Positions 3,105 to 44,403 of a stretch of 64,000 nt of DNA are shown here, one piece after another (positions within the stretch are counted from its first letter, which is position 1; the number at the start of each line of letters is the position of its first letter). The stretch comes from a virus. Both the position numbers and the translations under genes were made by a program. Under the pieces are notes generated by a model. It was not told the DNA's origin and made no database searches. It saw only the letters and a list, made by a program, of their open reading frames with translations. The DNA is taken from IMG/VR virus record IMGVR_UViG_3300045988_131126; one strand, 5' to 3'.

Positions 3105-3149
3105 CAGTATGAGATGGAGTAAAACCCGTCTCATACTGTTTTATTTTTT
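3105..3149 (+). terminator. rho-independent terminator
   Basis: cagtatgaga(t)...gtctcatactg stem followed by ttttatttttt. Confidence 0.75.
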
Positions 3150-11870: not shown

Positions 11871-12089
11871 ATGAGAAGAGATGAATTCATGAACGCGCAC
11901 GAAGTAAGAATGAGCGAGCTTGAAAAAGCTTGCGAGGATCTTAACGAGATTCTCGGCTCCGATCCTGTAGAAGGATTTGAAGATGATATCCTGGATCCTT
12001 CCCTAGAAAGCGAAAGAGGAATCCAGGATATCCAGACAAAGAATTCTCAAGATTTGGATGACTTATTGAAGGGTCTTGAGAATTTATAA
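11871..12089 (+). CDS. small acidic hypothetical protein (cassette cargo)
   Basis: ATG 11871 lies 7 nt after the conserved GAAAGAGG (the track's GTG at 11850 sits inside the leader). 72 aa. Visibly more G+C than its surroundings. Own promoter module and terminator. Confidence 0.6.
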   Translation: MRRDEFMNAHEVRMSELEKACEDLNEILGSDPVEGFEDDILDPSLESERGIQDIQTKNSQDLDDLLKGLENL

Positions 12090-18718: not shown

Positions 18719-18724
18719 AAAACG

Positions 18725-18757
18725 AGAAAGCTATCCAATGGATAGTTTTCTTTTTTC
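18725..18757 (+). terminator. rho-independent terminator
   Basis: gaaagctatcc-aat-ggatagttttc (contains a plus-strand G.U pair) followed by tttttt. Confidence 0.65.
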
Positions 18758-18765
18758 TACGATAC
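18751..18765 (+). repeat. exact 15-mer TTTTTTCTACGATAC, copy 1 of 4
   Basis: Identical 15-mers at 18751, 26467, 26849 and 33637, all plus strand, each just downstream of a gene's 3' end. This copy lies directly on the terminator T-tract. Confidence 0.8.
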
Positions 18766-18767
18766 GC

Positions 18768-18866
18768 GTAATATCTTTATTTTTTGATCATATAATATTA
18801 TAGTGATAATAATAAAAAATAATACATAAATCCTATATAATAAATATAGGTAGAAAGAGGAACAAT
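18768..18866 (+). promoter_or_regulatory. repeated promoter-leader module, copy B
   Basis: gtaatatctttatttttt, then TTGATC (18784-18789), N17 ending TGA, TAATAA (18807-18812), then leader hairpin cctatat/atatagg (18832-18850), then tagaaagagg, then ATG 18867. Confidence 0.55.
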
Positions 18867-22149: not shown

Positions 22150-24357
22150 ATGGACGAATTATTTAATGATCTTTTAAATCCGGAGCCATTTATATCAAAG
22201 ATTCAATCTCGATTTAATGAGATACAACCTTTGATAATTGATGATCTGACGCACTATGAAAATTATGGTGAATATGTACCGCTAGTTAATACTGGAGCGA
22301 TCAGTATTAACACTTCTAATTTGAGTAAAGAGAATATTGATTCTCATTTTACTTGGATTTATAATATCATTGCTGATGGCATTGAGCAGAAAAAAGTTCA
22401 TGATATGATAGTATATATTACATTTATGGATAATGTACAAATTAGATTATCTATATTTGATTATATGCTTAATCTTATTATGTGGAAACTACCTTTGCAA
22501 GCCGGAGATTCTTTAACAAGTAATTTCCTATTCTTTGATGATTGCATCACGCAGGATTCTATCAAAGATTATATTGATTTTAAATTCATTGATATTCACA
22601 GAAGAGATTTTAATAACTGTGATATGAATCAAATGATTGATGAGACAATATACAAATTTATGTATATTGATGACTTTGCTTATTATCTTATCAATACTAT
22701 CAATGAAAAAGATACTATTGATTTAATGAAGAAGTCCCAAGTAGCATGGGATACATTGCATTTTTCTACGGTACAATATCCGTTGGAAGACAAGAAAGAT
22801 GCTGCTATGGATATGACAAACAAATTAATTGCAGTAATAAAAGCACCTGATTCTGAGCATTGTTTAAGGGATTCGTTCAGAGCTAGAGAAGGTGTTAACC
22901 CAAAACAGTTCAGGGAAATGATTTGCAATATTGCAACTAAACCCGATGGTAATGGAAGTATCTTTAGTATCGACCTCGATACAAACTATATGCAAGAGGG
23001 TGTAGCAAAACCTGAATATTATACTATTGATAGTAGTGCAGCAAGACAAGCACAGATCTTAAATAAAGAGAATGTAGGACAATCTGGAGCATTTTCTAGA
23101 AAATTAAGATTAAATAATATGCACGCTAAAATTCATCCAAACCCAAAATACGTTTGTAATTCAAAAAGATTCTTGCCAATATTTATTAAAGATATGAAAG
23201 TATTAGTAAGATTCAAAAACAGATATTTCAGATTTAATCCAAAAGGAATGGAGTATAAAGTATCTCCACATCCAGAAAGAGATAATGTAAATCTTATAGG
23301 AAAGACTTTATATTTTAGATCTCCGGAAACATGTGCTTCACATGCTAGAGGAGAAGGGATTTGTTATAGATGCTATGGGGATTTGGCATATACGAATGCA
23401 GATATTAACCCAGGATGTATGGCATCAGAGTTATTGTCTTCTGTATTAACCCAGCGATTATTGTCTGCTAAGCACTTATTAGAGACAAATGTAAAAGCAT
23501 TAAACTGGGTTCCGGAATTCAAAGATATTTTTGCTGTAAACTGGAATATGATTATGATTATGGATGATTTCATTCCAAAGAAATGGAAACTTATTATATC
23601 ATCAGATGATATTTATCAGGAATCAGAATATGATGAGTTTGATTATAACTCATGCATAACTACTTTCAATGTAATGGATCCTGATGGAAATACCATTCTT
23701 ATCAAAACAGAGGATTTAGACAACTTATATATTTCTCCAGAGTTAAGAAAAGTAATGGATAATCAGAAACTTGTAGATGATCAGTATATAATCGATTTCT
23801 CTGATATTATGGGGATTCATTTATTTATGGTCAATATTACAAATAATGGATTATCTGCAACTCTTGAACGATGCAAAGCTACTCTTGATAAACAAGCTAT
23901 TATTAAAGAGTATAAAAATGATATCGGATTATTTACACAAGGATTTATCAATACTATTATTGAGGGTGGACTTGATACAGATGCAGTTCATTGTGAAGTA
24001 CTTATATCAAATCAGTTACGTAGAGTCACAGACGATTTAGGAGATTCTATGTTACAACCTGAGTGGGAATATCCAAATGAACCATACAAGATCGTAACTC
24101 TTGATACAGCGTTAAAAGAGAACCCAAGTATCACTACATCATTGAATTATCAGTATATACAGAAACAGTTATTCAAACCAATTACATTTAAGAAAAATAA
24201 ACCTGGTATGATGGATTTATTCTTTATGGAAAAACCACAAGAATATATGAATGTAGAATTGGATTATAACCCGAAATTCAAAGATGACGTTGATGATGCA
24301 ATTGATGGATTTATTAATCCTATTTATCACGTAGATGAAAATGGTAATAAATTATAA
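22150..24357 (+). CDS. multisubunit RNA polymerase beta-prime-like protein, C-terminal half
   Basis: 735 aa. SPETCASHARGEGICYRCYGDLAY (23331-23390) matches the beta-prime segment ..C....GvC..CYGrDLa. There is no NADFDGD segment, so this is only the C-terminal part. Ends DGFINPIYHVDENGNKL (NPIYH at 24316-24330). Confidence 0.65.
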   Translation: MDELFNDLLNPEPFISKIQSRFNEIQPLIIDDLTHYENYGEYVPLVNTGAISINTSNLSKENIDSHFTWIYNIIADGIEQKKVHDMIVYITFMDNVQIRLSIFDYMLNLIMWKLPLQAGDSLTSNFLFFDDCITQDSIKDYIDFKFIDIHRRDFNNCDMNQMIDETIYKFMYIDDFAYYLINTINEKDTIDLMKKSQVAWDTLHFSTVQYPLEDKKDAAMDMTNKLIAVIKAPDSEHCLRDSFRAREGVNPKQFREMICNIATKPDGNGSIFSIDLDTNYMQEGVAKPEYYTIDSSAARQAQILNKENVGQSGAFSRKLRLNNMHAKIHPNPKYVCNSKRFLPIFIKDMKVLVRFKNRYFRFNPKGMEYKVSPHPERDNVNLIGKTLYFRSPETCASHARGEGICYRCYGDLAYTNADINPGCMASELLSSVLTQRLLSAKHLLETNVKALNWVPEFKDIFAVNWNMIMIMDDFIPKKWKLIISSDDIYQESEYDEFDYNSCITTFNVMDPDGNTILIKTEDLDNLYISPELRKVMDNQKLVDDQYIIDFSDIMGIHLFMVNITNNGLSATLERCKATLDKQAIIKEYKNDIGLFTQGFINTIIEGGLDTDAVHCEVLISNQLRRVTDDLGDSMLQPEWEYPNEPYKIVTLDTALKENPSITTSLNYQYIQKQLFKPITFKKNKPGMMDLFFMEKPQEYMNVELDYNPKFKDDVDDAIDGFINPIYHVDENGNKL

Positions 24358-26107: not shown

Positions 26108-26455
26108 ATGATACAGGTATTTCCTAAAGATGAAAATGTAAATATGAATCTAGAAGTTCCTACATTTGTAAATACTAGGAAAAATGATTACATATTATCT
26201 AAGAAATATACTAAAGAAAAGGAGGGTCTTACAATGAAAAGACTCAATAAGAAAATCGAAACTATAAACAATATTATTCTGGCAGTTGCCATTGCCGGAA
26301 TAATATTCTGGCTCCTTGGAGATGGCCTTTTTGGTCATCTCGGAGGACTTATAGTTACTATTATAGTAACTATAAGCATTTCCTTATTGACAGTAAGGAA
26401 ACTTCAATTGAAGAATAAGAAACTTCAATTGAAGTTAATGAAAGCAAGACGATAA
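26108..26455 (+). CDS. small membrane protein (two predicted TM helices), holin-like topology
   Basis: ATG 26108 follows GGAGAGG. A stronger internal start at ATG 26234 follows AAGGAGGG. TM segments IILAVAIAGIIFWLLG and LGGLIVTIIVTISISLLTV. Charged C-terminus. Confidence 0.5.
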   Translation: MIQVFPKDENVNMNLEVPTFVNTRKNDYILSKKYTKEKEGLTMKRLNKKIETINNIILAVAIAGIIFWLLGDGLFGHLGGLIVTIIVTISISLLTVRKLQLKNKKLQLKLMKARR

Positions 26456-26472
26456 GTCTTGCTTTCTTTTTT
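26440..26472 (+). terminator. rho-independent terminator
   Basis: gaaagcaagac-gataa-gtcttgctttc followed by tttttt. The stem includes the stop codon. Confidence 0.75.
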
Positions 26473-26481
26473 CTACGATAC
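26467..26481 (+). repeat. exact 15-mer TTTTTTCTACGATAC, copy 2 of 4
   Basis: See 18751. Lies directly on the terminator T-tract. Confidence 0.8.
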
Positions 26482-26574
26482 TCGTAAAATCGTTTTTTTT
26501 TGAGTGTATATTATTATAGTGATAAATAATAATAAATCCTACTTTTAAAATAAGTAGGTAGAAAGAGGTATAAT
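26482..26574 (+). promoter_or_regulatory. repeated promoter-leader module, copy C
   Basis: TTGAGT, N17 ending TGA, TAAATA, then leader hairpin cctactt/aagtagg (26538-26558), then tagaaagagg, then ATG 26575. Confidence 0.5.
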
Positions 26575-26802
26575 ATGTGGAATTTATTTGGCATAGATGA
26601 TTTTTTAACAGACCAATTTTCTGAGGAGGCTTCTGCATTATTAGAAGACCCTCAGGAAGGGGATTTAGAAAAACTAAAAGATATTTTTAAGAAATATTCC
26701 TGCAACGCTATGTGGTGGGAGATAAAACCGGTGTATGACCGGTATTATTCTGAGATTGAATATAAGCTCAGAAAAATAAAAAATAAATTAGAAGAAAGCT
26801 AG
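26575..26802 (+). CDS. small acidic hypothetical protein (cassette cargo)
   Basis: 75 aa. Conserved RBS. Own promoter module and terminator. Confidence 0.6.
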   Translation: MWNLFGIDDFLTDQFSEEASALLEDPQEGDLEKLKDIFKKYSCNAMWWEIKPVYDRYYSEIEYKLRKIKNKLEES

Positions 26803-26819
26803 TAATGCTAGCTTTCTTC
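26791..26819 (+). terminator. terminator hairpin
   Basis: gaagaaagctag-taatg-ctagctttcttc (12-bp stem containing the stop codon). The T-tract is weak. Confidence 0.5.
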
Positions 26820-26854
26820 TAATTATACTAATTTACGTATACTCTTTATTTTTT
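26819..26854 (+). repeat. 36-bp direct repeat, copy 1 (ctaattatactaatttacgtatactctttatttttt)
   Basis: 34/36 identical to 27091-27126. The two copies bracket an ORF-free cassette. Confidence 0.8.
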
Positions 26855-26863
26855 CTACGATAC
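26849..26863 (+). repeat. exact 15-mer TTTTTTCTACGATAC, copy 3 of 4
   Basis: See 18751. About 30 nt downstream of the 26791-26819 terminator hairpin, on the T-tract that ends the 36-bp direct repeat. Confidence 0.8.
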
Positions 26864-26880
26864 TATGGCAAAATTGTATT

Positions 26881-26930
26881 TGTAATATCTTTATTTTTTA
26901 ATTATATATTATTATAGTGATAAGAATAGA
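26881..26930 (+). promoter_or_regulatory. repeated promoter box, copy D (no RBS or ORF downstream)
   Basis: tgtaatatctttatttttt, then TTAATT, N17 ending TGA, TAAGAA. Same architecture as copies B and E, but followed by hairpins instead of the tagaaagagg RBS. Confidence 0.45.
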
Positions 26931-27090
26931 AAATCTATATCTTATCCGGTAGTATGTCCGAAACATACATAAAAGGAAAGAGCACTTCATAGTGCTCATT
27001 ATATTACTTTACTTTATTAAGGCGGGCTTAGGTTGCGATCTTTTTGGTCGTAACCTAGGCTCAAAATCAAATAATAATATTTTATTTTTT
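26931..27090 (+). ncRNA. candidate small RNA expressed from promoter box D
   Basis: No ORF or RBS. Three hairpins: 26952-26968, 26980-26997, and a 14-bp stem at 27026-27060 with three G.U pairs that pair only in the plus-strand transcript. Ends in ttttatttttt (27080-27090). Confidence 0.3.
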
Positions 27091-27126
27091 CTAATTATAC
27101 CAATTTACATATACTCTTTATTTTTT
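27091..27126 (+). repeat. 36-bp direct repeat, copy 2
   Basis: ctaattataccaatttacatatactctttatttttt. See 26819. Confidence 0.8.
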
Positions 27127-27169
27127 GTCTAAAACAACACTGTAATATTGATTGAGGAGATGATGTAAA

Positions 27170-29386
27170 TTGGTAATACCTGCTGAGAAACAACAAGTAC
27201 AACCTATTACTATATATTATCAGACATCTACTACTAATCAAAGTTTCATGGATATGCATTTTCAATTAAAACAACAAGGACGTGTTAATAATAGATTTTT
27301 CCTTGCATTATACGATAGAGACTTGATAGGAGTAGATCCAAGGGATCCTAGACTTCCACAATATATGAAAGCTAAAGTGCTTAATGAATGTGCACATAAC
27401 TATTGGTATTTTATTAGAGAAGTAATACGTATTCCAGATCAAGGTGGTGCTGCTAACTCTGGTGTAAGGTACAAATTACATAGAGGAAACTTAGCATTAT
27501 CTTTTTGCTTATTAAATAACTGGAATATTTTTTTGGAATTACCTCGTCAGCATGGTAAAACCATGGCTGCGTTATGTTGGTATTTATGGGTATTTAACTT
27601 TAGAACTACCAACTCAGAAATTATGTTTATGAATAAGAAACATGATGACTCTAAAATGAACTTACAGAGATTAAAGATACTTAGAGCTGCTCTTCCTACA
27701 TATTTACAATTTGCAAATCAATATGGTAAAGATGGTACAAAATTAAGAGCATCTAATACATTAGAGACAATTACTCATATTATAAATAATAACAAGATTA
27801 CTACTAAACCTAGTGCTAGAAGTAAGACTATAGCTAATAACCTTGGTCGTGGTTGTACTATGCCTATGCATTGGTATGACGAGTATGCATTTATTGTATA
27901 CAATAAGATCATATATCAAGCTGCTACTCCTGCATACAAGACAGCATCAGAAAATGCTAAAAAGAACCATGCACCATATGGTATTCTTATAACAACAACA
28001 CCTGGCGATTTAAGTACCGATGAAGGAATGGATGCTTATGAAACAAGAAACTCTGCTACGCCATTCCTGGAAGAATTCTATGATTATACTCCACAGCAAT
28101 TAAAAGAAGTTGCTGAAGCTAATACGGATTCTTCTTTCTTTTATATAAGATTTACTTATCAACAATTAGGTTCTTCCGAACAGTACTTCAAAGAAATGGT
28201 TCGAGATCTTAAGAAAGATTGGGCTGCTATCAGACGTGAAGTTTTACTTGAGTGGTCTCTTACATCTGATAATTCTCCATTTGATCCTAATGACCTTGAG
28301 CTTATTGCTACTATGGTAAGAGAACCTATTAGAAGAATAGTATTAAGAAAAGGATTCGCTATTGATCTTTATAAACAAATAGAAGATCCTCATTATCCTC
28401 CTATTATAGGTGTCGACGTTTCTGGTGGTTATAGTAGGGACTCTTCTGCTGTAACTATTATAGATAGCAAGACTACAGATGTGGTAGGAGACTTTAACTG
28501 TAACTATATATCTACTAATGATTTGGCTCATTTACTGTATGAATTAGTAGTTAAGTTTATGCCTAATGCTATAGTAAATGTAGAGCGAAATGGTGGTTTT
28601 GGTGCTTCTGTATTATCAACACTAAAAGAAACCAAAATAAAACGTAATCTATATTATGAAATCAAAGATAGAATATTCGAGGAACGAACGTTTGGTGGAA
28701 TGAATCAAACTATAAAACATACTCAGAAATGTAAAGTATACGGATTCGATGAAACAAAGAATAGTCGAGATCTGTTAATGCAGATATTAAGAGAAAGGGT
28801 AGATAACCATAAATCTAAATTCTTATCTCCTAAGATATTAGCAGAATTACGTACATTGGAATATAAGAAGAATGGTAGAATTGAGCATACTGCTCAAGGA
28901 CACGATGACCAGATATTCTCTTATCTAATGGCTATGTATGTATGGTATGAAGGAAAAGAACTTACTGAAAGATATGGTTTACAGAAAGTAACTATACATA
29001 CGGATGAAGATGATGAAGATAGAATTGATATTGATAATAACTATACAGATATATCTGAAGCTATTAATGAAGAATCTGATATGGTTCAAGAGCAATTAGA
29101 TGTACTATCTTCTAATAAAGCTATACTATATGATGAATGGAGAGCGCAAGAAAAAGCTAAAGACCAAGAAGCTGTAAATAGGTTATTACAGACTAAAGTT
29201 GGTCAGCAAGCTTATATCGAAAAATATCATATAGATCCAGATGATCTTCCGATATTAGGGCAAGCCTATTCTATTCCACAGGATGTATTTGATGATTATT
29301 ATGATGATTTTCAAGTAGATCCATTAACTAAACAAAAGTTAGTAGAAGAAGAAAGATTAAGTAAAATATATAGTATGAAATATTAA
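27170..29386 (+). CDS. terL: terminase large subunit
   Basis: 738 aa with a TTG start 10 nt after GAGGAG. Walker A-like ELPRQHGKTMA (about 27544-27562), Walker B HWYDEYAF, coupling motif ITTTPGD. Nuclease-domain acidic motifs IIGVDVSGG and GHDDQIFSYLMA. The layout is T4 gp17-like. Confidence 0.85.
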   Translation: MVIPAEKQQVQPITIYYQTSTTNQSFMDMHFQLKQQGRVNNRFFLALYDRDLIGVDPRDPRLPQYMKAKVLNECAHNYWYFIREVIRIPDQGGAANSGVRYKLHRGNLALSFCLLNNWNIFLELPRQHGKTMAALCWYLWVFNFRTTNSEIMFMNKKHDDSKMNLQRLKILRAALPTYLQFANQYGKDGTKLRASNTLETITHIINNNKITTKPSARSKTIANNLGRGCTMPMHWYDEYAFIVYNKIIYQAATPAYKTASENAKKNHAPYGILITTTPGDLSTDEGMDAYETRNSATPFLEEFYDYTPQQLKEVAEANTDSSFFYIRFTYQQLGSSEQYFKEMVRDLKKDWAAIRREVLLEWSLTSDNSPFDPNDLELIATMVREPIRRIVLRKGFAIDLYKQIEDPHYPPIIGVDVSGGYSRDSSAVTIIDSKTTDVVGDFNCNYISTNDLAHLLYELVVKFMPNAIVNVERNGGFGASVLSTLKETKIKRNLYYEIKDRIFEERTFGGMNQTIKHTQKCKVYGFDETKNSRDLLMQILRERVDNHKSKFLSPKILAELRTLEYKKNGRIEHTAQGHDDQIFSYLMAMYVWYEGKELTERYGLQKVTIHTDEDDEDRIDIDNNYTDISEAINEESDMVQEQLDVLSSNKAILYDEWRAQEKAKDQEAVNRLLQTKVGQQAYIEKYHIDPDDLPILGQAYSIPQDVFDDYYDDFQVDPLTKQKLVEEERLSKIYSMKY

Positions 29387-33122: not shown

Positions 33123-33134
33123 TATTTATTTATT

Positions 33135-33179
33135 CCATATACTCTATATATAAGAGTATATGGAATATCTTTATTTTTT
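33135..33179 (+). terminator. rho-independent terminator
   Basis: ccatatactct-atatata-agagtatatgg followed by aatatctttatttttt. Confidence 0.7.
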
Positions 33180-33257
33180 AATTATATAATATTATAGTGA
33201 TAATAATAAAAAATAAATAAATCCTACGTTAAACTCGTAGGTAGAAAGAAGGAAATT
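33164..33257 (+). promoter_or_regulatory. repeated promoter-leader module, copy E
   Basis: aatatctttatttttt, then TTAATT, N17 ending TGA, TAATAA, then leader hairpin cctacg/cgtagg (33223-33241), then tagaaagaagg, then ATG 33258. Confidence 0.55.
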
Positions 33258-33578
33258 ATGACGAACACAGCGCAGACAACTACAATTATCACAGACCTTG
33301 ACACAATCAAATCACTTATGCAACTTGAAGACCTGATCGATCACGATTTCGAGATCTTCGATGAATACAAAAAATACCTTGCAGATGCAGAAATTCGTCA
33401 GAAATTAGACGAATTACTCAATATACAAATCGAGCATCTTGCATTTCATCAGGTATTAATGGATCGATTGACGATAGCAAGCGTAAACACAAAGAAAGCT
33501 TGTATTGAGTATCATCGGGCTGTCATTAATACGATGACATCATGTAAAATGCTTATTGCATTTTACGAAAGAAACTAA
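33258..33578 (+). CDS. small hypothetical protein (cassette cargo)
   Basis: 106 aa. Conserved RBS. G+C-richer codons than flanking genes. Own promoter module and terminator, inserted inside the structural block. Confidence 0.65.
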   Translation: MTNTAQTTTIITDLDTIKSLMQLEDLIDHDFEIFDEYKKYLADAEIRQKLDELLNIQIEHLAFHQVLMDRLTIASVNTKKACIEYHRAVINTMTSCKMLIAFYERN

Positions 33579-33588
33579 GCAATACATA

Positions 33589-33617
33589 AGTGCAGAGTAG
33601 AATTTCTACTCTGCACT
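33589..33617 (+). terminator. terminator hairpin
   Basis: agtgcagagtag-aattt-ctactctgcact. The T-tract (ctctttatttttt) lies about 15 nt downstream. Confidence 0.55.
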
Positions 33618-33636
33618 AAATTTCATATTCTCTTTA

Positions 33637-33651
33637 TTTTTTCTACGATAC
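33637..33651 (+). repeat. exact 15-mer TTTTTTCTACGATAC, copy 4 of 4
   Basis: See 18751. About 20 nt downstream of the 33589-33617 terminator hairpin. Here it lies about 55 nt upstream of ATG 33707 with no motif-2 promoter box in between. Confidence 0.8.
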
Positions 33652-33706
33652 CTGAAAATGTACATCTGGAACATATCATTAAATTGATATGGAGGTGTAT
33701 TCATAT

Positions 33707-34504
33707 ATGAGCAGACCTAATTTTATTAAAGTTGTAGATGAATCTGTATACTTTAAAGGTCCAAATAAGAAGTTTATTTTTTTCGTTCCAGAAAAGTATT
33801 TTGAACGAAATTGTGCTATTGAAGATGGTGAGTATATAGAATTAATTGGTATATTAAATTATACTATAGTAGATAGAGATTCTACTAATTATGCTAAAAA
33901 GATAGGAACTTTTAATTATCCGAGTATGTTTGTAACTAAACCTGGATATGTTGAAAGAGCAAGAAAATTTCAATTGACTAAAGATACAGATCCTCAAGAC
34001 TATAGATTATTAATATATGAAGATAATGATATAGATCAAATAATATCTTCTACAGAAGTACCTCAAGATATTGCTAATGTAGAACAGTTTATCAGATTAT
34101 TCGTATTAACTGGTAATATTCCTAAAACTATCCCTTATGATAAATTACATGAATATTTCTTGGATTCTATTAAATATAATGGAGGTAACTATAAAGTTAC
34201 TGCTCAATTATTTGGTATATTATTATCTGAAACATGTAGATCTAAAGATGATCCTGCTATACCATTTAGATTATCTAAAGAAAAAATAAAAGACCATAAT
34301 ATGCACGCTTATGAGACTATGAGAATTAGTCAAATTCCTAAATTTAATGGTCCATTTAACTCACTTACATCTGAGAACTGGGATGAATCTCTTATTGGTG
34401 CTATGATGAATCCTGATAGTAAAGGTTCTCCTCTTGAGCCTATTATGATGGGTGGTTGGGATAGAATAAATAGACCAACAGACAAAGACGACCAGATATC
34501 ATAA
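33707..34504 (+). CDS. hypothetical protein (structural block, immediately upstream of sheath)
   Basis: ATG 33707 after GGAGGTG (the track's ATG 33689 overlaps the RBS). 265 aa. Confidence 0.7.
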   Translation: MSRPNFIKVVDESVYFKGPNKKFIFFVPEKYFERNCAIEDGEYIELIGILNYTIVDRDSTNYAKKIGTFNYPSMFVTKPGYVERARKFQLTKDTDPQDYRLLIYEDNDIDQIISSTEVPQDIANVEQFIRLFVLTGNIPKTIPYDKLHEYFLDSIKYNGGNYKVTAQLFGILLSETCRSKDDPAIPFRLSKEKIKDHNMHAYETMRISQIPKFNGPFNSLTSENWDESLIGAMMNPDSKGSPLEPIMMGGWDRINRPTDKDDQIS

Positions 34505-37394: not shown

Positions 37395-37407
37395 TAAAAA
37401 AATAAAT

Positions 37408-37446: not shown

Positions 37447-39783
37447 TTAATATCCTCCGTATGAATCTCCGACTGCATTTCCGTTAGCAGAAGCTGCAGT
37501 TTTACGTTTATTATATTCAAACTCTGTTTGTCTCTTAAGATTATCTATCTCATCAGCTTTTACATAAGTACTCAATCTTTGTTTCATCATTAACTTCATA
37601 AAGATTGCTTTCTTTTCATTATTAGCTTGATCATTTTCATTATCATATTCGTAATTAGCTATGGTTTCTGTATTAGCACGTACAGTTTCAAGGATATTAT
37701 TAAGATTTGTAATAGATAAGAATAATGGTTGAGGTAATACACATTTAATGTATACTCTTTCTCCATATTCTGCAGCATATAAAGCTGTTATTATTCTACT
37801 GAAGTAATATTCAAGCTTCTCTTGTCTTAGTATACAGTGCCTTAAGAATTTGATATTAGACATTGTAATTTGCGTAGCAAAGTCTGTACTATATCTTGCA
37901 TTTACTAATTCAAGAGGAATACCAGTAGAATTTACACACTGTTCTTCAAATCTATCTAATAATTCTGTATGAGGTTGAATATCTTGACCATTCATTACTT
38001 CCATTTGTACAGGAGCATCTCCAGATTGTCCAACAGGAATAACAAAGTCATTATATCTACCTATAATATTCAATATAGAATTCATATTCTCTACTTGACG
38101 TATATTAAAATTAGATATTTTAATCTGATTAATAACGTTCATAAGAGTCTGAGCTATATTGGTTTCGGTATTCTGTTTTACATAGTATACCCTTCTATCT
38201 TGAGATCTTGTTAAAGATGCTATAGTATCATTAATAGAAATACAACAATACATTTTAGCCGCTATTAAGCAAGATAATATGTCAGATATACCTCTATGTG
38301 TATCAGGATCTTCTTCAAATTTAATATGAGTTACATCTTCTTCTGGTAAGAATGTAACTTTGATATTAGAAGTTGAAGCTCCATTGAAAAGATCATTATA
38401 TTTTAATACTGCATATATTTCACCCGCTAAATCTGGATTAGTATTGATAAATTGCGTATCAATCTGACTAGCTATATTAGATGCTACATATTTTAATAAT
38501 TGGTTTTTATCTTGTTCTGCTTTAAAATCTTGAGAATTTTTAACAGCGTTTCTATCATACATTGTAGAACCATAACCAGAAGAATCATACTGGTTACTAT
38601 ATAAAATAGAATTATCTGTATTTGGATCAAATTCAAAGTAATAATATCCTAAACATATTTCGTCAATATATAATAATACAACGTTTTCAGGCTTTAATGT
38701 TTTTAATACACAACCCGGTGTTTTTACATTATATGAATCGACACTATTATTTATACCAGATTTAATCAAACCGTCTCTAGCACTTTGATCAAAGTCTTTA
38801 GTTGGTAATTCTAATTCATCTGATATAGTTTTATTCAATTTAGTTTTCTTATCGCTAGTATTATTTTTTAATGAATTTGGTAAAGCATCTTCCATTAATG
38901 CCATTTCGTCTATATTATCGCATACAGAGCCAACTTCATTAACTATACTCATAGATTCTCTTAATCTAGTCTGATCATTAACAGCAGACTCAAGAACTCC
39001 AGTATAATTATATGATACATTGATATTATATGTATTTGTAGTAATCTGATTATTTAATTTTAAGTCTTTTGTAGTAATTCCATCTATTCTGATTACTGAT
39101 TCATGTAATCCTCCTGGATTACTAACTGACATGGTTTTAGATTTATCTCTTAAAAGTTTAGCCAAAGCTTTCTTATATGGTGGATGATAAATAAATTCTT
39201 CACCATATTTCATTGTACTATAAGTGGCTTTATCGAATTTTTCTGCTAATTTATATTTCTTTTTAATATTTTCAATACGAGTATTAAATACAACTCTATC
39301 CTCATCATATGTAGATGATACAGTAGCATTAACAAAGTCTTTAGAGAAATTATCTGATGATAATATGGCGTCTCTTTTAGCTTTTAATGCTTCATCAAGC
39401 TTAGGCATATATTTACATACTGTATCTATTTCATTATACAGATCTTTTATATTCTTATTCTGTAAATATATGCCTAATATATTATTTGTAACACCCTCAT
39501 CTCCAAAAGTGTCTTCTATTTTCTTCTGAACTTGTCTATCATTAAGATTCTTAGACAATAATGCTCTTGAATAAAGTTTAGTAAGATTTGGAGCATCTAT
39601 ATCATTATTTCTATTCATGATAGCATCAATATTATCTTCAACTCTGCCAGATACATCGTCCAATTCTTTTTTGGAGGTTCTGGATGAGTTATATGTCTGC
39701 CTGTAGTGGTCGTTCATTCGGTTATTCAATATTTTAGACAGATCGACAATTTTAGAAAAATTAAATCTGTTTCTATTTGCCAT
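37447..39783 (-). CDS. large hypothetical virion-associated protein (possibly portal)
   Basis: 778-aa ORF next to the structural block. The size fits a jumbo-phage portal, but I recognise no diagnostic motif. The start is preceded by an SD-sequestering hairpin. Confidence 0.3.
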   Translation of the reverse strand: MANRNRFNFSKIVDLSKILNNRMNDHYRQTYNSSRTSKKELDDVSGRVEDNIDAIMNRNNDIDAPNLTKLYSRALLSKNLNDRQVQKKIEDTFGDEGVTNNILGIYLQNKNIKDLYNEIDTVCKYMPKLDEALKAKRDAILSSDNFSKDFVNATVSSTYDEDRVVFNTRIENIKKKYKLAEKFDKATYSTMKYGEEFIYHPPYKKALAKLLRDKSKTMSVSNPGGLHESVIRIDGITTKDLKLNNQITTNTYNINVSYNYTGVLESAVNDQTRLRESMSIVNEVGSVCDNIDEMALMEDALPNSLKNNTSDKKTKLNKTISDELELPTKDFDQSARDGLIKSGINNSVDSYNVKTPGCVLKTLKPENVVLLYIDEICLGYYYFEFDPNTDNSILYSNQYDSSGYGSTMYDRNAVKNSQDFKAEQDKNQLLKYVASNIASQIDTQFINTNPDLAGEIYAVLKYNDLFNGASTSNIKVTFLPEEDVTHIKFEEDPDTHRGISDILSCLIAAKMYCCISINDTIASLTRSQDRRVYYVKQNTETNIAQTLMNVINQIKISNFNIRQVENMNSILNIIGRYNDFVIPVGQSGDAPVQMEVMNGQDIQPHTELLDRFEEQCVNSTGIPLELVNARYSTDFATQITMSNIKFLRHCILRQEKLEYYFSRIITALYAAEYGERVYIKCVLPQPLFLSITNLNNILETVRANTETIANYEYDNENDQANNEKKAIFMKLMMKQRLSTYVKADEIDNLKRQTEFEYNKRKTAASANGNAVGDSYGGY

Positions 39784-39784
39784 T

Positions 39785-39859
39785 GGATGGAAACCTCCCT
39801 TACCACGAATTATCTTATTGTTCCAGCGATAATTCTATATGGTAAGGGAGACTCCATCC
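39785..39859 (-). promoter_or_regulatory. 17-bp hairpin sequestering the Shine-Dalgarno sequence of 37447..39783
   Basis: Plus-strand arms ggatgga-aac-ctcccttacc (39785-39804) and ggtaagggag-ac-tccatcc (39841-39859) give 7+10 bp with a small internal loop and a 36-nt apical loop. In the minus-strand mRNA the 3' arm contains AAGGGAGG, and the ATG starts 1 nt after the stem. Confidence 0.55.
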
Positions 39860-39860
39860 T

Positions 39861-40589
39861 TTATTCTGACAAACTTCTATATCTTAATAAGCATTTAATC
39901 ATTAAATCTTTTGGTTTACTTTTTATAATTTCTACTATAGAAACGTTGCTTCCATCATGTAAATCATATAAAGTTATTGATACTTTATCTTTAGCTGTGA
40001 TTGGATACATGCCGCCATATAATGTAATGATATTATTATCTAAATTAACCATTTCCATTCCATCTCCAGCTTTCATAGATAAACTGTTCGTAATATCCGC
40101 ATTCTGCCTTAAATCATCCAAATGATAGATTAATGTTGGATCATCAAGACTATATGGATTTGAGCCATGTCCTAATAAACGAGCGTTACGAGCTAATTTA
40201 TATAATTTATCACCCACAAACGATTTACCTACCCATAACTTGGAATAACCCATTTGGTCGTACACATTACAATTGCTTATATATCCAAATTCATTTTCTT
40301 TCATCAAAGCTATGATTTCATTTTTATTAAAATATAACGTGTAATCTGAAACTGCATTTCCTTTTTCATCAGACCACGTCCAATGATTAATATCCCCATC
40401 ATTTAATGCGAAATCTATATATTCTATATACGTTACAGATGAAAAATCATCATCTGTTCCGTATACGTTTACTCGTACTATATCTAAAAATTTTTCTACT
40501 GACACAGCAAACCATTTTTTCTTTGTATACTTTACATATTCAAAAATCTTTAAAAAGTTTTCAAGTGATAATCCTACATATTTTCCCAT
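39861..40589 (-). CDS. hypothetical protein immediately downstream of the polymerase N-fragment
   Basis: 242 aa with AAGGAG RBS. The start lies 12 nt after the PolB-N stop. Contains GSNPYSLDDPTLIYHLDD (LIYH at 40112-40123). Confidence 0.75.
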   Translation of the reverse strand: MGKYVGLSLENFLKIFEYVKYTKKKWFAVSVEKFLDIVRVNVYGTDDDFSSVTYIEYIDFALNDGDINHWTWSDEKGNAVSDYTLYFNKNEIIALMKENEFGYISNCNVYDQMGYSKLWVGKSFVGDKLYKLARNARLLGHGSNPYSLDDPTLIYHLDDLRQNADITNSLSMKAGDGMEMVNLDNNIITLYGGMYPITAKDKVSITLYDLHDGSNVSIVEIIKSKPKDLMIKCLLRYRSLSE

Positions 40590-43649: not shown

Positions 43650-43660
43650 CTATATATTAA

Positions 43661-43715
43661 ATACAAGATTGTCTCATTGGTCCTGCTGCTGAAATGAAAC
43701 CATCTTGTATTTTTC
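43661..43715 (+). terminator. rho-independent terminator (long bulged hairpin)
   Basis: atacaagat...atcttgtat outer stem, tcatt/aatga inner stem, then tttt. Confidence 0.6.
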
Positions 43716-43940
43716 ACTCGAAGCTGTTTTACTGGCTTGAATTCTGGTGTGGATGAACACCTCCTCCGAAAAATTGTAACGATGGTACTTGGTAGCCTCA
43801 TGCAACTCTGTCTTGCATGGGGTTGCTAAGTTGTTTTAAATAGTTATAACAATTTCATAATTAGACAGGGATGCCTAATTATGTATTTTGTATTTTTCAT
43901 AAAGTTTTTTCCTTTTTTTGTTTTTTTGAGTAGTTACGGA

Positions 43941-43986
43941 GAAATAATAGATAGTGAATATTCGCTATCTATTATTTTCTGTTTTT
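43941..43986 (+). terminator. terminator-like hairpin with no ORF upstream
   Basis: gaaataatagatag...ctatctattattttc (14 bp, one bulge) followed by tgttttt. Confidence 0.5.
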
Positions 43987-44403
43987 AAATAACAAGTATA
44001 ACATTAAATTAAATATAGAAGTTGCCACTCTATATTTACGTAAAGCCTTTCCATGTGTGGTTTATGAATGGTATTTATGTGTGCGTAATAGTTTTGTTTT
44101 TCCACCTAGACATACTTAATAGTATGTCTAGGCCCTCGCATCTATAAAAATAAAATATATTTTTGAATAAATATCCTGTATGATCGAATTGATCATACAG
44201 GATATATTTTGTCAATAGTAAGGGGCTATTGACATAGATCAAGACCGGATAGGATAACTCCTATCCTGCGTTACAATAAAAATAAATAAGAAGGAGTTAT
44301 ACTTCGTAAAGAGAAAAACTAGCAGAATGTTACACGAAGGGATGTTTTAAAACTTTTTACTACTAGTCTTCTCTTTACTCAGATGTATAATATACTATCA
44401 TTT

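Follow-up and report, generated by a model that had tools for sequence, protein, structure and literature searches.

A predicted gene-less early cassette and a candidate start-occluding repeat in a strain-variable slot upstream of the terminase gene of an AR9-like jumbo phage

What is the role, if any, of a stretch of phage DNA that carries a candidate promoter and no evident gene, is bounded by two near-identical repeats, and lies directly upstream of a terminase gene? This question is raised by a 64,000-nt piece of viral DNA (the whole of which is referred to here as the window), for which an original prediction had suggested that the ORF-less unit is either an sRNA expressed from an early promoter or part of a pac/cos-type region. 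Jumbo phages with their own multisubunit RNA polymerases (RNAPs) have been studied mainly in a few cultured models and, to our knowledge, next to nothing has been learned about how their uncultured gut relatives control expression after transcription or how plastic their genomes are. The locus was analysed with respect to its phage of origin, its variation between strains, its regulatory words, and the folding of its predicted transcripts.

The gene that follows the unit, terL (27170-29386, plus strand, as are the other features of this region described below), encodes a terminase large subunit of 738 aa that matches PHROG terminase families (E down to 7e-53), and its N-terminal M-V agrees with the ATG/GTG/TTG-GTA starts of its relatives. 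The window, which has a G+C content of ~30%, also encodes an RNA polymerase beta-like subunit (22150-24357) and a divergent family-B DNA polymerase. The nearest cultured relatives of TerL are found in PBS1/AR9-type Bacillus and Staphylococcus jumbo phages (35-39% identity; 37-39% with the TerL of AR9), and a DNA similarity search against cultured phages returned zero matches. An identical TerL is present on a 273,686-bp ENA metagenome contig and on four more contigs, in each case with unchanged neighbours, and the sister contigs stem from human-gut metagenomes. Taken together, the TerL relatives, the exact TerL matches on metagenome contigs and the gut origin of the sister contigs identify the window, by sequence, as part of an uncultured AR9-like jumbo phage of the human gut.

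The basic anatomy of the unit proved to be as first described. Two copies of a 36-mer, CTAATTATACYAATTTACRTATACTCTTTATTTTTT, lie at exactly the positions given for them, 26819-26854 and 27091-27126, and are 34/36 identical; between them are the 15-mer TTTTTTCTACGATACT (26849-26864) and a promoter box whose core, TATATTATTATAGTGATAA, occupies 26905-26923, and the unit ends in a T-run (27081-27090) that lies 80 nt before the TTG at 27170. With as many as 3 mismatches allowed, the 64-kb window has no third match to the 36-mer, and none of 100 dinucleotide shuffles produced a match. The likeness of the two copies continues weakly upstream (55 nt, 84%).

To place these repeats in context, we compared the slot between an upstream gene for a 115-aa protein and terL across strains in which the terL leader and the terL start are nearly base-identical (the window, L001, L002, L049, L050 and L051; for L001 and L002 the best tblastn segment against the TerL of the window was 100% identical). 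This comparison revealed four types of slot. The window, whose arrangement was assembled in 5 contigs, carries the cassette of a 75-aa gene followed by the ORF-less cassette, with two 36-mers; L001 carries the ORF-less cassette alone, with one 36-mer; L002, L049 and L051 carry the 75-aa cassette together with the cassette of a 114-aa gene that has its own terminator hairpin, with two 36-mers; and L050 carries one 36-mer and an unrelated 83-aa gene that has no early promoter. The ORF-less unit is thus found in two of the four slot types. L001 corresponds to the window with 384 bp taken out, and the break falls within the repeated words CTACGATACT...AAAAT; in L002, L049 and L051 the 114-aa gene sits where the ORF-less body was, precisely from the promoter box to the 36-mer. 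The slot before terL is hyperplastic and, as judged from these sequences, a phage with this terminase can do without the ORF-less body, which some strains with the same terL lack.

The same comparison bears on the nature of the 36-mer. The 75-aa gene (26575-26802), an early cassette present in the window, L002, L049 and L051 and absent from L001 and L050, is followed in all strains that have it by the 36-mer at the 3' end of its cassette. Its terminator-type hairpin (26786-26824; 17-bp arms and a 5-nt loop) reaches with its 3' arm 6 nt into 36-mer copy 1, and the copy closes with the terminator tail TTTATTTTTT (26845-26854). This runs directly into a second copy of the boundary word CTACGATACT (26855-26864), in the region that forms the right end-point of the window/L001 indel. 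The first copy of this word, together with a T-run, is found at 26467-26482, immediately 3' of the terminator hairpin of the 115-aa gene (26440-26466), and marks the left end-point of this 384-bp indel. Both of these predicted terminators are followed by a T-tail, and the layout is repeated at 18720-18790 and 33130-33180. More generally, TTTATTTTTT stands behind stem-loops throughout the window, on both strands, as well as behind the terminator upstream of terL in relatives with 58-65% TerL identity. A diverged third copy, consisting of the 3' part of the 36-mer, a T-tail and CTACGATACC (33606-33654), closes an early cassette (promoter box at 33185, gene at 33258-33578) just before a late virion gene, and 36-mer copy 2, whose T-tail is at 27117-27126, adjoins terL in every strain. 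Folded alone or with the downstream promoter region, 36-mer copy 1 showed no obvious partner, forming a weak 5-bp hairpin that is not significant. Given the strain comparison of the slot, the sequences identify the 36-mer as a 3' boundary module of early-gene cassettes; the two copies are not target-site duplications.

The cassettes appear to begin in an equally uniform manner. In AR9 the early promoters of the virion RNAP have been experimentally defined as AAATATATATTAT-N6-G(+1) (PMC5312081). The candidate early promoter of the ORF-less cassette (26884-26919) consists of AATATCTTTATTTTTT, AATTATATATTAT (26900-26912), a 6-nt spacer and a predicted +1 G at 26919, so that AATTATATATTAT-TATAGT-G agrees with the AR9 early consensus at 12/13 positions and at G(+1). 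The box of the 75-aa cassette (26502-26521) has the same 19-nt core. The box sequence TATAWTATTATAGTGATAA occurs five times on the plus strand of the window (at 1886, 18791, 26507, 26905 and 33185), where 0.7 occurrences were expected, and at the four sites other than that of the ORF-less unit, as in relatives, it stands 37-62 nt upstream of a gene. A scan for sigma-70 promoters found 8 against 8.2 expected, hence no excess. It is therefore plausible that the ORF-less cassette has a promoter of the AR9 virion-RNAP early type. The two early promoters that are co-oriented with terL lie 249 and ~650 nt upstream of it. All promoter assignments made here, early and late, are predictions by analogy with AR9.

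What, then, might the ORF-less cassette express? The body predicted to be transcribed (26919-27090) contains four local hairpins, one more than was first counted, H0 (26919-26946), H1 (26952-26968), H2 (26980-26997) and H3 (27024-27040 paired with 27046-27062), followed by an A/U spacer and the T-tail at 27081-27090. The stem previously placed at 27026-27060 is indeed a large hairpin with G.U pairs, but instead of 14 bp and three G.U pairs it has 17 bp, among them 8 G-C and 4 G.U. Folding of the body yielded -56.5 kcal/mol (z -7.5) for the plus strand versus -39.7 kcal/mol (z -2.7) for the minus strand, which upholds the argument that a plus-strand RNA is formed, and the plus-strand MFE ranks within the lowest 17 when 2970 sliding 172-nt windows are compared (top 0.6%). 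The first ~30 nt resemble the standard leader of early cassettes (GATAA.AATA.AAAAT...ATCC..GGTAG), with the SD missing and the A-rich standard form replaced by a perfect 12-bp 5' hairpin. At the other end, H3 is separated from the T-tail by 18 nt, and for this reason termination may be poor; a terminator scan did not call H3, which differs from a canonical hairpin with an immediate U-run, although the spacing is similar to that of the hairpin-spacer-tail ends of this phage's other cassettes.

The description of the unit as free of ORFs holds only in part, as there is a 46-codon GTG ORF (26992-27132) with a hydrophobic product and an SD-like AGGAAAGAG 10 nt upstream. In L001 this ORF is broken by a stop (A27019T) and a 1-nt deletion, and it is thus not conserved as a coding sequence. 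By contrast with the reading frame, the stems of H0-H3 are hit by 0/6 of the differences between the window and L001 (the chance of all six missing the stems is ~0.02 by our own arithmetic, made post hoc). Hence the H3 stem, for which a comparison with relatives had been proposed, is intact in L001, but there is no covariation in the stems of the body, which is carried by two near-identical strain lineages. Searches for homologues were likewise negative. Rfam covariance models gave 0 matches at gathering score in the window, a relaxed Rfam scan of 26700-27250 gave sub-threshold matches only, with none on H3, and ARAGORN made 0 tRNA or tmRNA calls. A blastn-short comparison of the body with 65 related loci matched only the same phage; when IMG/VR was scanned for exact words from both H3 arms and from H2, this returned only the sister contig and chance matches, such as one in the G+C-rich, unrelated L066; and the whole H3 hairpin had 0 matches in GTDB genomes. 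When the region was compared with all loci by six-frame tblastn, only the 36-mer was matched, and local DNA alignments of the body to the 115-aa, 75-aa, 114-aa and L050 genes were no better than shuffles. We also considered a kinship of the H3 region with the 115-aa gene, with which it shares 'G.LFG(R/H)LG' and a C-UUUUU-GGUC hairpin; this was rejected as not significant (BLASTP E = 1.0).

From its box and its fold, the ORF-less unit is predicted most likely to be transcribed early into a stable non-coding RNA, and this RNA may act in trans, serve as a structured leader or insulator before terL, or be a neutral relic. Of the two readings in the original prediction, an sRNA from an early promoter is a viable one, in that the AR9-type box, the plus-strand folding and the lack of a conserved ORF speak for an early sRNA, while the missing homologues, in Rfam, viral, genome and metagenome scans, and the missing covariation between the two lineages do not. 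In its full form, the unit would be a trans-acting early sRNA with an accessory role, an RNA 'moron' engaged, for example, in host takeover or anti-defence. Its parts are those of an sRNA gene (a promoter, a 5' stem-loop, two internal hairpins, a terminal 17-bp hairpin and a U-tail), the plus-strand-specific folding, the remodelling of the standard leader into a perfect hairpin and the intact stems in L001 also speak for it, and the alternatives that fill the slot are small early genes, one of them weakly similar to SUKH_6 (an immunity-protein family; E = 0.037). Against this stand the confinement of the unit to two of the four slot types, the possibly poor termination behind H3, and the fact that no complementarity to another locus came incidentally to notice, and we regard a trans-acting sRNA as unlikely, if worth keeping in view. 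A more specific version, in which the unit is an accessory RNA gene of ~170 nt that is transcribed early by the virion RNAP, swapped in the same way as small proteins and active in trans on the host, seems to us doubtful to a similar or slightly greater degree. One can imagine such an RNA as a decoy or antagonist of a host defence or RNA-processing system.

It is also conceivable that the unit is a decayed cassette, the functionless remains of promoter, leader and terminator after loss of the coding sequence. This would explain the leader-like first ~30 nt without an SD, the dispensability of the unit and its absence from some strains, and also its oddity among early boxes, most of which have a gene within ~100 nt; apart from this unit, a few weaker matches in relatives lack one. 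Against decay, no DNA or translated similarity to neighbouring or related cassette genes was detected; four stable, partly G+C-rich hairpins in a genome of 30% G+C are unexpected for a decaying CDS; and the unit has been kept in two diverged strain backgrounds and in 5 assemblies. We therefore consider decay improbable, and less credible than a trans-acting sRNA.

For the 36-mer copy next to terL, a second role is predicted. The terL TIR (27153-27175) comprises the SD UGAGGAG (27153-27159) and AUGUAAAUUGGUA (27163-27175), which includes the TTG at 27170-27172. A segment of the 36-mer, TACCAATTTACAT (27098-27110), is perfectly complementary to 27163-27175, with the TTG start inside the paired region, and 27114-27120 pairs with the SD. 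The resulting helix, with 13 + 7 bp over the start and the SD, gives the 95 nt from 27091 to 27185 a folding energy of -21.5 kcal/mol (z -4.9), and the anti-TIR duplex is stronger than in 500/500 shuffles. It is kept in the full 282-nt read-through RNA predicted for the window and for L001. The 13-nt arms are 52 nt apart, and the interval holds, 3' of the anti-SD segment, a late promoter motif of AR9 type, AACA-ACACTG-TA (27133-27144), with a predicted late +1 at A27144, and in an RNA that begins at 27144 the TIR is without significant structure (z +0.25). The AR9 late consensus is AACA-N6-TA/G, and terL of AR9 (g121) has been found experimentally to be a late gene (PMC5312081). WACA-N6-TA is kept in place, 20-35 nt upstream of terL, in L003, L004, L014, L019, L021 and L035, as well as in AR9.

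Four paired positions of the anti-TIR helix vary among the strains; three of these stay paired (C-G to U.G, A-U to G.U and U.G to U-A) and one breaks, and no two-sided covariation was seen in the helix among the strains compared. In sequences unrelated to those of the slot, an SD-occluding pairing around the late promoter was found in L019 (2/500 shuffles), L004 (14/500) and L005 (16/500), where the pairing arm is a pyrimidine segment located between the terminator tail and the late promoter, and such pairing was at chance level in L003, L014/L017, L021 and L035. At the third copy of the 36-mer (33612-33710), an anti-TIR pairing was considered and rejected, being not above chance (z -0.9). A general property of these loci that counts against the helix is that T-rich boundary sequences pair readily with purine-rich SDs. 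As an internal control, all genes of the window with a late-type motif were scanned for TIR occlusion, and terL ranked second. The top rank was taken by a virion structural gene on the minus strand (37447-39783), in which a hairpin of ~28 bp (-46.1 kcal/mol, z -7.8) encloses both the SD and the AUG and carries AACA-ATAAGA-TA in its apical loop. On the strength of this modelling, the terL-proximal 36-mer probably also keeps terL untranslated until late infection.

We propose that these features fit together as follows. The slot would be built from small early-gene cassettes with common regulatory boundaries, each boundary consisting of a terminator hairpin, the 36-mer with its TTTATTTTTT tail, CTACGATACT, an early promoter box of virion-RNAP type and a leader, and cassettes would be gained, lost and swapped when such words recombine with one another. 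The two 36-mers of the window would then be the 3' ends of neighbouring cassettes joined in tandem, and may have arisen by an unequal exchange between the tail of the terL-proximal 36-mer, CTTTATTTTTT, and the upstream terminator tail CTTTCTTTTTT plus CTACGATACT; the tails CTTTATTTTTT and CTTTCTTTTTT are nearly identical. The presumed ancestral order of 75-aa gene, 36-mer and terL was absent from the strains, and exact-protein look-ups with TerL and the 75-aa and 115-aa proteins gave only the window-type genome, so that this recombination history is one that we infer. From the early promoter of the ORF-less cassette, a non-coding RNA of ~165-210 nt with four hairpins would be made, which would stop at the weak T-tails or read on into terL. 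In all transcripts that start upstream, the terL-proximal 36-mer would pair with the SD and the TTG and block translation, and late transcripts, beginning at AACA-N6-TA inside the loop and thus without the 36-mer, would be translatable. Since early read-through RNA would be occluded and late RNA open, terminase would be made only late. As a whole, this explanation, which combines a hyperplastic slot of boundary-sharing cassettes, a gene-less early cassette and an anti-TIR 36-mer, is in our judgement moderately probable.

The position of the unit directly upstream of terL, and the presence of 36-mer copy 2 and its complement in all strains, could instead be taken to mean that the region, or the inverted pair 27098-27110 / 27163-27175, is a DNA packaging signal (pac/cos) or a terminase-binding site. 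The pac/cos idea in its original form fails on the strain comparison, because the 160-nt body is missing from L002, L049, L050 and L051 despite a near-identical terL leader, and a body that strains with the same terL do without is not pac/cos; only 36-mer copy 2 is universal. As for the inverted pair, variants of the 36-mer pair via G.U only, which in a DNA palindrome would be mismatches, and an equivalent hairpin precedes a virion gene that is not involved in packaging. Moreover, PBS1/AR9-type phages are generalised transducers and are thought to package by headful, which also counts against a packaging signal. We give this reading very little credence. Equally little is due to a mobile element with a 36-bp target duplication, an integron-like cassette or a gene for the 46-aa hydrophobic peptide (26992-27132), for, although direct repeats flank the unit and the ORF has its SD-like word, there are neither terminal inverted repeats nor a recombinase or transposase nearby, the L001 junction falls in the CTACGATACT word, outside the 36-mer, the single-copy 36-mer adjoins unrelated genes, and the peptide frame, besides its stop and frameshift in L001, has its GTG within the H2 stem and crosses the T-rich boundary sequence. 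Integron- or MITE-type, pRNA-type and micro-protein readings were rejected as explanations of the ORF-less cassette.

If our preferred reading of boundary-sharing cassettes and an occluding 36-mer is right, the locus suggests that two devices of T4 have been re-invented with a wholly different transcription apparatus, namely the shuffling of accessory genes via common promoter-terminator modules, and the silencing of late genes in early read-through RNA by a helix that the late promoter bypasses. It also offers concrete promoter and terminator words for this group of phages, and marks the strain-variable slot beside terL as a place in which to seek accessory early functions, possibly including non-coding RNA. 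Were the accessory RNA gene real, it would stand beside the small early 'moron' proteins of jumbo phages as their RNA equivalent.

The first of these devices has its closest parallel in the PeSLs (promoter-early stem-loops) of T4-type phages such as RB49 and phi1 (Arbiol et al. 2010, PMC2839356; PMC4122927). PeSLs, like the boundaries described here, are repeated intergenic modules in which a terminator stem-loop is combined with an early promoter; they cluster beside small ORFan genes in hyperplastic regions, and where close relatives differ by insertions, deletions or replacements, these end in the modules. They have been proposed to keep early transcription out of late virion genes (PMC2839356; PMC4122927). 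The present modules differ in that their predicted promoter is of the AR9 virion-RNAP type instead of sigma-70, in that they contain the 36-mer, its TTTATTTTTT tail and CTACGATACT as extra conserved words, and in that one cassette is gene-less.

The second device recalls the T4 late genes e (lysozyme), soc, 49 and I-TevI, which are occluded in early read-through transcripts (McPheeters et al. 1986, reviewed in PMC3014915). In these genes the 5' arm of a helix, located upstream of the late promoter, hides the SD and/or start, and late transcripts start inside the helix and are translated (PMC3014915). The geometry of T4 gene e is predicted by our folding both for terL and for the virion gene at 39783. 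Here, however, the putative late promoter is AACA-N6-TA, read by the phage's non-virion multisubunit RNAP, whereas T4 uses the gp55-modified host RNAP; furthermore, the controlled gene is the terminase, and the 5' arm belongs to a repeated cassette-boundary module.

Within the same group of phages, AR9 (Lavysh et al. 2017, PMC5312081) provides early and late consensus sequences that both fit the window, and its terL is a late gene with a late motif ~25-30 nt upstream of the start, as is predicted here. In AR9, unlike here, terL is divergent from an early gene and has neither a co-oriented early cassette nor an occluding helix; because of this divergent orientation, AR9 would need no device for TIR occlusion. 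The RNA of the ORF-less cassette might also bring to mind the pRNA of phi29, which is likewise structured, ~170 nt long, transcribed from an early promoter and associated with DNA packaging. The window has no match to any Rfam model, including pRNA, at gathering score, and a relaxed scan found none to pRNA near the ORF-less body; and since some strains that share the terminase lack the body, its RNA cannot be a component of the packaging motor. In summary, PeSL-like modules and gene e-like occlusion are known principles; what would be new, as predictions from folding and motif models, is their presence in phages that have multisubunit RNAPs of their own. Of the elements of the locus, only the gene-less cassette could prove to be new in itself.

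The arrangement proposed for terL, in which the second copy of the 36-mer cassette-boundary repeat pairs with the SD and the TTG start codon while an AR9-type late promoter sits in the loop, has a predicted counterpart at a virion structural protein gene (37447-39783). Here, a long hairpin on the minus strand (39775-39874; fold -46.1 kcal/mol, z -7.8) is predicted to sequester both the SD (AAGGGAGG) and the AUG of the gene, and its apical loop carries the AR9-type late promoter motif AACA-ATAAGA-TA. As modelled, this is the same promoter-in-helix TIR occlusion as that proposed at terL, and the predicted occluding structure is stronger at the virion gene than at terL.

The 36-mer occurs a third time, in diverged form, on the plus strand at 33606-33654, where the 3' part of the repeat, together with TTTATTTTTT and CTACGATACC, closes an early cassette (33185-33578). 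This copy immediately precedes a late-promoter motif and then a virion structural gene, the start of which is likely at 33707; no significant anti-TIR pairing was identified at the copy itself. Across the whole window and on both strands, TTTATTTTTT recurs as a tail 3' of stem-loops, as seen at 3140, 7094, 11780, 19184 and 33170 and, on the minus strand, at 37406, 56700 and 61562. Distant relatives keep the word after the terminator upstream of terL, and it appears to be the terminator U-tract that this lineage favours.

The most structured stretch in the whole window (26260-26470, plus strand) lies inside the 115-aa gene (26108-26455, plus strand) that forms the left flank of the strain-variable slot before terL. 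The MFE of a 172-nt segment is as low as -78, and a 141-nt piece has a folding energy of -65.1 (z -10), with five to six near-perfect hairpins in a row within the hydrophobic C-terminal half of the gene, the product of which is a small, membrane-like protein. In the sister-strain orthologue (L050; 77% identical), the sole hairpin retained is that of GDGLFG(H/R)L, with one compensatory change from U-A to C-G. At the C-terminal end, a 21-nt tandem repeat (GAAACTTCAATTGAAG...; 26398-26439, plus strand) codes for a repeated KLQLK motif and also makes a 14-bp hairpin immediately 5' of the terminator.

Elsewhere, the plus strand at 11900-12040, within a 79-codon GTG ORF, is unusually structured (G+C 0.37-0.43, -51.6 kcal/mol, z -5.5), and no ORF reaches 70 aa across the roughly 750 nt of 43650-44403, a region that holds several inverted repeats of 18-22 nt. 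Neither stretch had an Rfam match.

In three sister strains, a 114-aa gene (L002 5544-5888; also L049 and L051) replaces the ORF-less early-promoter unit upstream of terL. Its product weakly resembles SUKH_6, of the SMI1/KNR4 immunity-protein superfamily (sub-threshold, E = 0.037), a hint that the slot holds accessory or counter-defence functions.

No intron or intein was found in terL in this window. In several relatives (L014-L018, L026-L036), the TerL match spans 2.4-3.3 kb versus 2.2 kb, and the annotation of AR9 terL (L069 1498-4699) joins five pieces; because of these longer spans and the five-piece AR9 gene, it is probable that introns or inteins interrupt terL in related phages.
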